33,975 bases of DNA. It comes from Parcubacteria group bacterium. GTDB taxonomy: Bacteria > Patescibacteriota > Minisyncoccia > Phycocordibacterales > Phycocordibacteraceae. Both the position numbers and the translations under genes were made by a program. The first letter of the stretch is position 1; each line of letters starts with the position of its first letter. Of this stretch, positions 11,339 to 11,421 are shown piece by piece. Below the pieces are notes generated by a model. It did no database searches, was not told the DNA's origin, and worked only from the letters and a program-made list of their open reading frames with translations. Where the stretch lies: NCBI GenBank assembly GCA_028286505.1, contig JAQBRK010000024.1, positions 1-33,975 of the forward strand. The letters run 5' to 3'.

Positions 11339-11421
11339 GTAGCTTCGTTGCGGACATCTGTCCCGCCCATTCGTCGTACTGCTAGTACGCCTGCTTCGCG
11401 GGCCTGTCCGCGCCTCGCTAC
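11339..11421 (+). repeat. intergenic hairpin-element family, copy A (downstream of rpmE)
   Basis: Rod-like fold with these paired segments:
- GTAGC (11339-43) with GCTAC (11417-21)
- GCGGACA (11350-56) with TGTCCGC (11405-11)
- CCCGC (11362-66) with GCGGG (11398-402)
- tip CGTAC-tgcta-GTACG (11375-89)

The 5' motif is AGCTTCGTTGCGG and the 3' motif is GCGCCTCGC. Confidence 0.65.

Follow-up and report, generated by a model that had tools for sequence, protein, structure and literature searches.

The repetitive extragenic palindromic (REP) unit of bacteria is a palindrome of 20 to 40 bp that carries an unpaired GTAG or CGTC tag and usually occurs in inverted doublets (PMC3733652; PMC3116915). 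Another described element, sX9, is a 75-nt Northern-verified RNA of Xanthomonas campestris pv. vesicatoria to which no primary transcription start site was assigned (PMC3300014), and it is among the most frequently annotated bacterial small RNAs (PMC9029176). Here we analyzed a stretch of 33,975 nt (contig JAQBRK010000024.1, from here on the window) of a Parcubacteria group bacterium, in which a first-pass annotation had noticed a family of hairpins placed after stop codons. We find that these six elements are probably old, diverged copies of a nonautonomous transposable hairpin that resembles a miniature inverted-repeat transposable element (MITE) and is part of a superfamily found in many phyla of bacteria.

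The window holds exactly six copies (A to F; Table 1) of one core of about 95 nt, at the sites where they had been proposed. The tip CGTAY-N5-RTACG was seen five times against 0.21 expected, and none of 100 shuffled sequences reached five. The tip layout first described, CGTAC-N5-GTACG, fits five copies in this slightly relaxed form (CGTAT-AGCAC-ATACG in copy E, which has a weak central helix), while copy F has an N6 loop, unlike the N5 loop found elsewhere. A shared 3' box is indeed present, as GCGCCTYGC lies exactly 20 nt past the tip in copies A, B, C, and E. With a covariance model trained on 38 members of the family, the six copies scored 40.2 to 80.2 bits, and nothing else in the window scored above 17.4 bits. 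Because the six copies are part of the seed of this model, the informative part of the scan is the lack of additional copies.

As the first-pass annotation had pointed out, five copies lie in sense orientation just past a stop codon: the match to the model starts -1, -1, 13, 12, and 8 nt from the stops of rplY, rpmE, rpsB, a GT2 glycosyltransferase gene (16556-17794, minus strand; copy F), and an open reading frame (ORF) of 1023 amino acids, respectively. Copy B itself starts 3 nt past the rpsB stop (13895) and stops about 35 nt short of tsf (14054), and prfA starts at 11469, downstream of copy A. Copy C is located between the divergent GT2 and pheS genes, upstream of a conserved promoter-like stretch of pheS. 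The element lengths given at first were too short, since outer arms (for example, CTAAAAGCTCC / GAATCTTTTAG) extend copies A, B, C, and D to the limits listed in Table 1. With their flanks, A, B, and D form hairpins of 123 to 126 nt, with outer stems that extend as far as the stop codon of the gene upstream or enclose it. The outer stem of copy A (GAAGAAGCTGTA / TACAGCTTCTTC, 11318-11329 / 11432-11443) surrounds the final codons of rpmE (11082-11330) together with its stop, and that of copy D (GTAAACCG / CGGTTTAC) takes in the TAA of the 1023-aa ORF (30542-33613). As isolated RNAs, copies A (z -3.0), B (z -5.06), D (z -4.70), and F (z -2.1) fold better than shuffled sequences.

The hairpin is conserved, covarying, and strand biased. 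Its core comprises, in order, the 5' box CTGC-N-YGTTGC, a short helix, a central helix of 7 to 13 bp, the tip stem, and the 3' box GCGCCTYGC; the central helix is variable in sequence, the internal loops are pyrimidine rich, and the 5-bp tip stem CGTAC/GTACG is invariant around a free loop. We aligned 38 diverse copies on a structure set by hand (two short outer helices, a 5-bp helix, a 13-bp central helix, and the tip) and found 76% of the cells paired, compared to 28 to 45% with slid partners. Covariation in this alignment was 0.340 versus 0.133 after shuffling (reached in 0 of 500 shuffles), with slid controls not exceeding 0.164. An alignment of 107 copies, which was made with the model and is biased toward the structure it was fitted to, gave 0.328 versus 0.118 (0 of 500) and slid controls of at most 0.131. 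All six pair types are used in the central helix, and among the 107 copies each of its 13 pairs varies on both sides. The closing pair of the tip changed from C-G to U-A in 15 copies and is broken in none. RNAalifold run on a plain MAFFT alignment recovered the tip alone because the central helix shifts register, which is why the hand-set structure and the model-based alignment were needed. Selection on structure had been deduced from compensatory changes between window copies; these changes, CCCGC/GCGGG versus CCAGC/GCTGG and GAGAATTTCT/AGAAATTCTC versus GGAAATTTCT/AGAAATTTCC, are present in the sequence and are the visible edge of a helix that is free in sequence but keeps its pairing, so that the signal in the family is far stronger than what the window reveals.

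The two strands of the hairpin differ. Mismatched cells on the CTGC...GCGCCTTGC strand comprised 544 pyrimidine-pyrimidine and 36 purine-purine combinations, G.U outnumbered A.C on that strand by 269 to 97, and one pair is U.G in 102 of 104 copies. Since symmetry would be expected of a neutral DNA palindrome, a single-stranded form of the CTGC...GCGCCTTGC strand, be it RNA or DNA, is under constraint. The orientation relative to genes is also biased: a long same-strand ORF ending near the 5' side was the only arrangement for 41 copies, and the antisense-only arrangement was found for 10 (12:2 in the Candidate Phyla Radiation [CPR] and 29:8 in other groups). The start of the model match peaks 8 to 13 nt past the stop codon, partly because the outer arms contain stops (TGA in TGACGG, TAA in GTAAAAAG).

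An exact scan of one genome per species with the pattern tip-N20-3' box matched at least 119 loci, 15 of which belong to a single Desulfatibacillaceae genome. Among the matches listed were Desulfobacterota, Smithella/Syntrophales, Nitrospirota, Burkholderiales including cultured Polaromonas and Curvibacter, Rhodocyclaceae, Bdellovibrionota, Bacillota, Bacteroidota, Treponema (Spirochaetota), and Gemmatimonadota, together with CPR genomes labeled Saccharibacteria, Paceibacteria, Kaiserbacteria, and Minisyncoccia. The 5' box CTGC-N-GCGTTGC was absent from the search pattern but present in nearly all matches, indicating that they are homologues and not chance hits; a few are chance-like (L042, L074, L076, and L104). 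The covariance model also retrieved copies outside the window that were not in its seed. An Rfam search of the window copies and ten further loci (gathering threshold, and E up to 1) placed no family on the window copies. A blastn search with one Desulfobacterales copy as the query gave no match in plasmids and phages, and among 2.9 million virus-like contigs the pattern occurred in only one contig family. In the full text of the literature, the box sequences turned up only in primers, and we found nothing relevant on MITEs or palindromic repeats in CPR bacteria.

Some matches stood out by their context or form. In a Rhodocyclaceae contig (L085; 1103-1194 and 1235-1540), a copy lies about 40 nt past the 3' end of the transfer-messenger RNA gene, on the opposite strand. 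The core of a Desulfatibacillaceae copy (L028; 957-1101) is flipped relative to an extra terminal repeat, and a short form (L002; 4085-4140) has its 5' box joined straight to the 3' flank, without the tip or the central helix.

The evidence for mobility comes from three subfamilies that have the core in common and differ in their terminal inverted repeats (CAGCCYGTTGAAAAA, GGGCACTTCTAT, and TGACGGCTTCGTAAAAAG). The Desulfatibacillaceae subfamily is 149 bp long, with about 90% identity between copies, termini CAGCC..GGCTG (CAGCCYGTTGAAAAA inverted repeats), and an extra internal copy of the repeat. Perfect 4-bp NTAN direct repeats flank 9 of 13 copies, and the next 4 nt outward match in none. 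In the Burkholderiaceae/Polaromonas subfamily (143 bp, termini GGGCAC..GTGCCC), perfect 4-bp duplications were found at six of seven copies and at none of the controls. The third subfamily (TGACGG..CATCA, 153 to 164 bp) showed perfect 4-bp duplications at 3 of 10 copies, with four more matching at three of the four positions. The sister subfamilies have thus transposed with 4-bp duplications. Several of the duplicated target sites are TAA or TAG, which provides a simple reason for the post-stop position in G+C-rich genomes. Solo terminal repeats proved to be further degenerate copies and not the ends of a partner element. A small mobile, MITE-like family had been listed among the candidate roles, and it is this one that is backed by the terminal inverted repeats and 4-bp duplications of the sisters, by syntenic presence and absence, and by bursts of near-identical copies.

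Turnover was also observed at the loci of the window itself. The gene order of the window is that of L089, a contig labeled Candidatus Saccharibacteria (59 to 83% amino acid identity). The first-pass annotation had raised the question of insertion polymorphism between strains; in L089, copies C and F are both absent at the syntenic sites. The GT2-pheS spacer of L089 measures 76 nt, and the downstream promoter-like stretch TATAGCAAATA...TATACTG is conserved; in addition, tsf of L089 is followed by an extra copy, at a place where the spacer of the window is 18 nt. Among 19 metagenome loci with an S2 protein (rpsB) 34 to 77% identical to that of the window, only two (L126 and L138) carry the element after rpsB, and the other 17 have no copy anywhere in 165 kb. 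In 15 of these 17, the 3' end of rpsB is kept and the rpsB-tsf spacer is short (55 to 75 nt), in some cases with a small hairpin, so that copy B is absent from 15 relatives. Two more loci, L034 and L040, have copies at the positions of A and B, that is, in the rpmE-prfA and rpsB-tsf spacers, but of another subfamily than those of the window, and the two copies of L040 are nearly identical to one another. These presence/absence differences around the genes of the window indicate that the elements turn over. The window copies look old, and they would have arrived by the same transposition as the sister subfamilies.

Further features were seen in the same spacers. The rpsB-tsf spacer of L089 (334-534) contains a different long inverted repeat (GGATGGGACGATATGTTTC ... 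GAAACATATCGGGGGACCCATCC), and in L126 (1436-1500) and L138 (387-450) an apparent half copy in antisense (..TTACGAGGCCCACGAGCGAGCAACGAAGG) comes right after the sense copy. In several copies, one side of the outer stem is formed by the final codons of the preceding gene and the opposite side by the exact reverse complement of these codons, as in copy A, in L034 (AAGAAAACAGCCAAATAA / TTATTTGGCTGTTTTCTT; 6420-6437 and the 3' flank), and at the end of rpsB in L040. Either these C-terminal codons came with the element, along with the stop, or the palindrome was extended outward into the gene.

U-tract-less intrinsic terminators and stabilizers of mRNA 3' ends had also been proposed. Canonical terminator-like hairpins are located 30 to 50 nt 3' of copies E and D (Table 1), which places these two copies within the 3' untranslated region (UTR) and not at its end. 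The stem of an intrinsic terminator is G+C rich and has a U-tract immediately behind it. No run of five or more T's follows A, C, or F; TTTT is found inside the outer arm of copies B and D, and the Desulfobacterota and Nitrospirota copies do finish in CTTTTT. A scan with a terminator consensus was uninformative (26 sites versus 20.7 expected). The terminator idea for the window copies appears weakened because separate canonical hairpins follow E and D and because B lies within the normally cotranscribed rpsB-tsf pair; that the copies themselves are the terminators is not supported. A role as 3'-end stabilizer would be reasonable.

Transcripts of the family were looked for in sequencing runs. 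K-mers of a Desulfobacterales copy occur in at least 14 metatranscriptome runs of different studies, with depths of about 1,700 and 6,800 in two of them; in DNA metagenomes, the k-mer depth of the element rises to about 10,000, compared to 6 to 13 for unique flanks. Contigs of four runs, which stem from different studies and include three RNA libraries, show the Desulfobacterales element (L062:566-724) joined head to tail. A contig of exactly 187 nt (157 + 30), the sequence of which goes back 157 nt at the joint, was present in three runs (two RNA, one of unknown kind), and a fourth run (RNA) had the same 157-nt joint in an 85-nt contig; the junction length is conserved between studies, and both types of contig are marks of a circle or a pure tandem. 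The joint is also found in a DNA metagenome, and L003 contains a genomic tandem. We read these contigs as tandem or circular forms of DNA; circular RNA was dropped as the principal explanation because the joint occurs in a DNA run.

Several observations weigh against the window copies being transposable elements. A target-site duplication is unreadable at all six copies (the best is copy C, with TAAA versus TATA), and their mobility is therefore inferred from relatives. No transposase or autonomous partner was found within the 34-kb window, and an all-versus-all comparison of 2,158 ORFs in 8-kb pieces yielded no flanking gene or protein family shared by the 119 copies. Conservation is in the interior and variation at the termini, the opposite of what an ordinary MITE shows. 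The copies at the A position in three genomes belong to different subfamilies, and this requires repeated insertion at one site or conversion. On the RNA side, E (z -0.37) and C (z +0.27) fold no better than shuffled sequences as isolated RNAs, and for 97 of 119 copies the energy computed by RNAfold is lower for the reverse complement, in conflict with the strand deduced from the mismatches; we attribute this to the handling of purine-rich loops by the energy model, but the conflict remains. The metatranscriptomes of the same study cover only the tRNA-Thr gene of the window, presumably via related tRNAs of other organisms, and the contig-based RNA evidence is strandless and may contain DNA. 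The conservation of the core boxes and mismatched loops across phyla, with outer arms that vary, would also suit a functional, protein-bound hairpin of the 3' UTR (a terminator, a processing site, or a decay barrier) that hosts maintain by selection site by site, transposon ends being only its carriers in some lineages. The strong covariation and the conserved U.G pair, the sense-strand bias after stop codons, the rpmE-prfA and rpsB-tsf spacers shared by the copies of the window, L034, and L040, and the stability of sX9 RNA all speak for this explanation. Still, we regard it as unlikely, because the same spacers are without the element in most close relatives, copies at the same site come from different subfamilies, target-site duplications and near-identical bursts show transposition, no neighboring protein gene is conserved among the loci, and the helices of E and C are poor.

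The hairpin and its strand asymmetry would likewise be explained by a REPIN/REP-type element moved as single-stranded DNA by an HUH tyrosine transposase, either a REP-associated tyrosine transposase (RAYT) or an IS200/IS605-like one. The strand-specific hairpin with its conserved stem and free loop fits such an element, and we take the 5' and 3' boxes to resemble the arms of E. coli REPs (GATGCGGCG / CGCCTTATC). The copies also share with REPs an intergenic location downstream of genes (PMC3733652). However, the 4-bp duplications of two subfamilies are not a product of HUH single-strand transposition, neither a 20- to 40-bp unit bearing an unpaired GTAG or CGTC tag nor a doublet organization is present, and no Y1 transposase was seen in the flanks of the loci, making this origin quite improbable. 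Even less probable is a small replicating unit of about 157 nt, circular or in tandem and similar to a retrozyme or a minicircle, with the elements being its template or DNA copies of it. The 187-nt contigs with the 157-nt joint in three runs, the same joint and thus the same junction length in a fourth, and the very high depth of the element in RNA pools would agree with such a unit, but the joint exists as DNA in a metagenome, a genomic tandem is present in L003, Rfam detects no ribozyme, a circle and a tandem array are indistinguishable from contigs, and the joint belongs to the Desulfobacterales subfamily and not to the window copies. We also see a small chance that the core is a portable RNA module with a conserved protein partner or processing pathway of its own (as for 3'-UTR-derived RNAs of the sX9 type), which three or more unrelated sets of transposon ends acquired and thereby spread across phyla and into CPR genomes of about 1 Mb; a subset of copies may also exist as 157-nt head-to-tail or circular forms.

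Coming back to the transposable hairpin, which we favor, each element would consist of a conserved, strand-specific core between inverted outer arms that differ by lineage. By analogy with the sister subfamilies, a transposase acting in trans would move it through a 4-bp staggered cut at A/T-rich, often TA-centered sites. At about 55% GC, such sites would commonly be TAA or TAG stop codons. With insertions inside genes being purged, copies would accumulate just after stops, and the outer arms would bring stop codons along as well. Once inserted, a copy would be cotranscribed with the upstream gene, and its pyrimidine-rich strand would form a long, rod-like hairpin in the 3' UTR. The probable effect of this hairpin is to block 3'-to-5' decay or to attenuate read-through, and processing into a stable small RNA may occur, as for sX9 in Xanthomonas. 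Any role in termination or mRNA stability is putative.

The window resembles Saccharibacteria, and the sequence runs that carry it come from metagenomes of soil. Among its genes are rplY, rpmE, prfA, rpsB, tsf, pheST, gyrB, a sortase gene, and several genes for CARDB surface proteins. Three CARDB-domain proteins, the sortase, and the 1023-aa ORF, which is without a family match, are encoded at 3351-5867, 8429-11020, 26822-28123 (minus strand), 28237-28899, and 30542-33613. The prfA, pheS, pheT, and tsf products are shorter than the respective family models; shortened proteins of this sort are usual in CPR bacteria. The first-pass annotation had tentatively linked a hairpin distal to gyrB to the family. 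The two do have a motif of about 10 nt in common, but nothing else, and at 6.4 bits against the covariance model (26533-26712), this hairpin is not a family member. A canonical G+C-rich terminator hairpin (26728-26770) comes after it, and the whole 248 nt fold at -99 kcal/mol (z -7.6). The gyrB-distal hairpin may be another mobile one.

Table 1. Positions of the six copies and of other features in the window
Feature	Position	Strand	Description
Copy E	784-876	+	Core match begins at the rplY TAA (137-784); 64.5 bits
Copy A	11318-11443	+	Core 11330-11425; 66.4 bits; extended fold -64.1 kcal/mol
Copy B	13898-14020	+	Core 13909-14003; 80.2 bits
Copy F	16450-16543	-	40.2 bits; most diverged of the six
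Copy C	17802-17923 (start and end approximate)	+	Core 17812-17907; 60.2 bits
Copy D	33610-33733	+	Core 33622-33715; 63.6 bits
tRNA-Thr (TGT)	15449-15522	-	
gyrB-distal hairpin	26535-26710		About 175 nt, 17-bp perfect ends GCATCTGGTTTAGAAAG / CTTTCTAAACCAGATGC; downstream of gyrB
Terminator-like hairpin	905-950		Canonical, AAGAAAGGCCGATTCC..GGAATCGGCCTTTCTT, T-rich tail; downstream of copy E
Terminator-like hairpin	~33763-33797		Canonical, AACACCCGCAGC..GCTGCGGGTGTT, T-rich tail; downstream of copy D

A Burkholderiaceae copy matches sequences in Enterobacteriaceae, and a diverged relative is present in all 5,426 complete E. coli genomes (5,426/5,426), at a median of about four to five places. 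In E. coli the relative is intergenic and unannotated, at glrK-qseG (L142), pheM-pheS (L144), and ycbX-rlmL (L145). Its alignment with the Curvibacter copy extends over the entire core and shows the same tip, central helix (GAAATCC/GGTTTC), and flanking helix, but both boxes are replaced (GCGTTGC by CCCTGG and GCGCCTTGC by CCGTATCC), and the family model matches only positions 34 to 68, with 18 bits. The copy number of the relative is low, and it is apparently fixed in the species. It may be the RSA or BEE95 family of Bachellier and Hofnung. One of the E. coli copies lies between the pheM attenuator and pheS, antisense to pheS, and copy C of the window likewise lies just upstream of pheS. We also considered BoxC/PIT/TMECO for the E. 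coli relative and rejected it, since the published consensus CCCTCNCCC-N3-6-GGGNGAGGG-N3-GGGNGAGGG (PMC4666352) is absent from it and from the window copies; REP was rejected on its published definition (PMC3733652).

The sX9 model (Rfam RF02228) matches the E. coli and Burkholderiales relatives with 24.3 to 33.6 bits, below its gathering score of 44, and does not match the window copies at E up to 1. Its consensus, a tip hairpin UGUAC-N5-GUACA followed by CUCCGGUUCCUCCGCGCC...CUCGCUACG, corresponds to the pyrimidine-rich strand of the 3' half of the hairpin, both in the E. coli relative and in the Burkholderiales-type copies. The model hence covers half of the hairpin, and sX9 has been described as a small RNA gene and not as a mobile repeat. 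Judging from this match, the proteobacterial branch of the family seems to have been glimpsed already as sX9, which is a stable RNA from a relative. The frequent annotation of sX9 is what a repeat would give, and the repeat nature would explain it; our covariance model finds copies that Rfam misses.

One repeat family would connect unannotated CPR hairpins, a plant pathogen's "small RNA," abundant repeats of sludge, sediment, and groundwater, and a silent repeat of about five copies in E. coli. As long as the copies are at gene ends, a load of roughly one mobile hairpin per 6 kb is apparently tolerable for genomes of about 1 Mb. Short-read assemblies are broken by the repeat. Since relatives sit in E. 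coli, the function of such a 3'-UTR hairpin can be tested in a standard model.

The likeness to REPs raised at first holds only by analogy. Like REPs, the elements are palindromic, extragenic, mostly downstream of genes, probably transcribed, and able to form larger hairpins, and roles in termination and mRNA stability have been proposed for REPs as they have for this family. Unlike REPs, the element is a single hairpin of 95 to 165 bp with target-site duplications in sister subfamilies, it has no conserved tag, and the short GTAG- or CGTC-tagged unit that defines REPs is absent; REPIN systems include a single-copy RAYT gene with the repeats on its flanks, and no RAYT was seen with the family in the 34 kb of the source genome or the 8-kb pieces of others. 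Integron attC sites have R''/R' core sites of the form RYYYAAC ... GTTRRRY and form cassette arrays beside intI. On inspection, neither of the boxes, GCGTTGCGC or GCGCCTTGC, has this form, and the flanking genes are ribosomal and housekeeping genes, so that attC was rejected.

With MITEs, which are nonautonomous elements of the DDE type, the family has in common that its members are shorter than 300 bp, noncoding, and multicopy (95 to 125 bp and six in 34 kb in the window; 143, 149, and 153 to 164 bp in the sisters), carry terminal inverted repeats, and are present or absent at orthologous sites; a cognate autonomous insertion sequence with the same ends was not found in the window and the flanks of the 119 loci. 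The Correia/NEMIS elements of Neisseria, the enterobacterial ERIC/IRU elements, and the pneumococcal RUP elements are likewise noncoding, multicopy repeats of 100 to 170 bp with terminal inverted repeats and short duplications at A/T-rich or TA-centered sites, and they too are intergenic and cotranscribed, form a long imperfect hairpin, and vary in presence between relatives. The duplication of the sister subfamilies measures 4 bp, versus the 2-bp TA of Correia elements. Compared by these properties, our family differs in that it occurs in at least eight phyla, including ultrasmall CPR genomes, and in that its interior core is conserved above the termini and is carried by at least three unrelated sets of terminal repeats. 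The element is best filed as an unusually widespread form of the MITE or structured-repeat kind of bacterial element.

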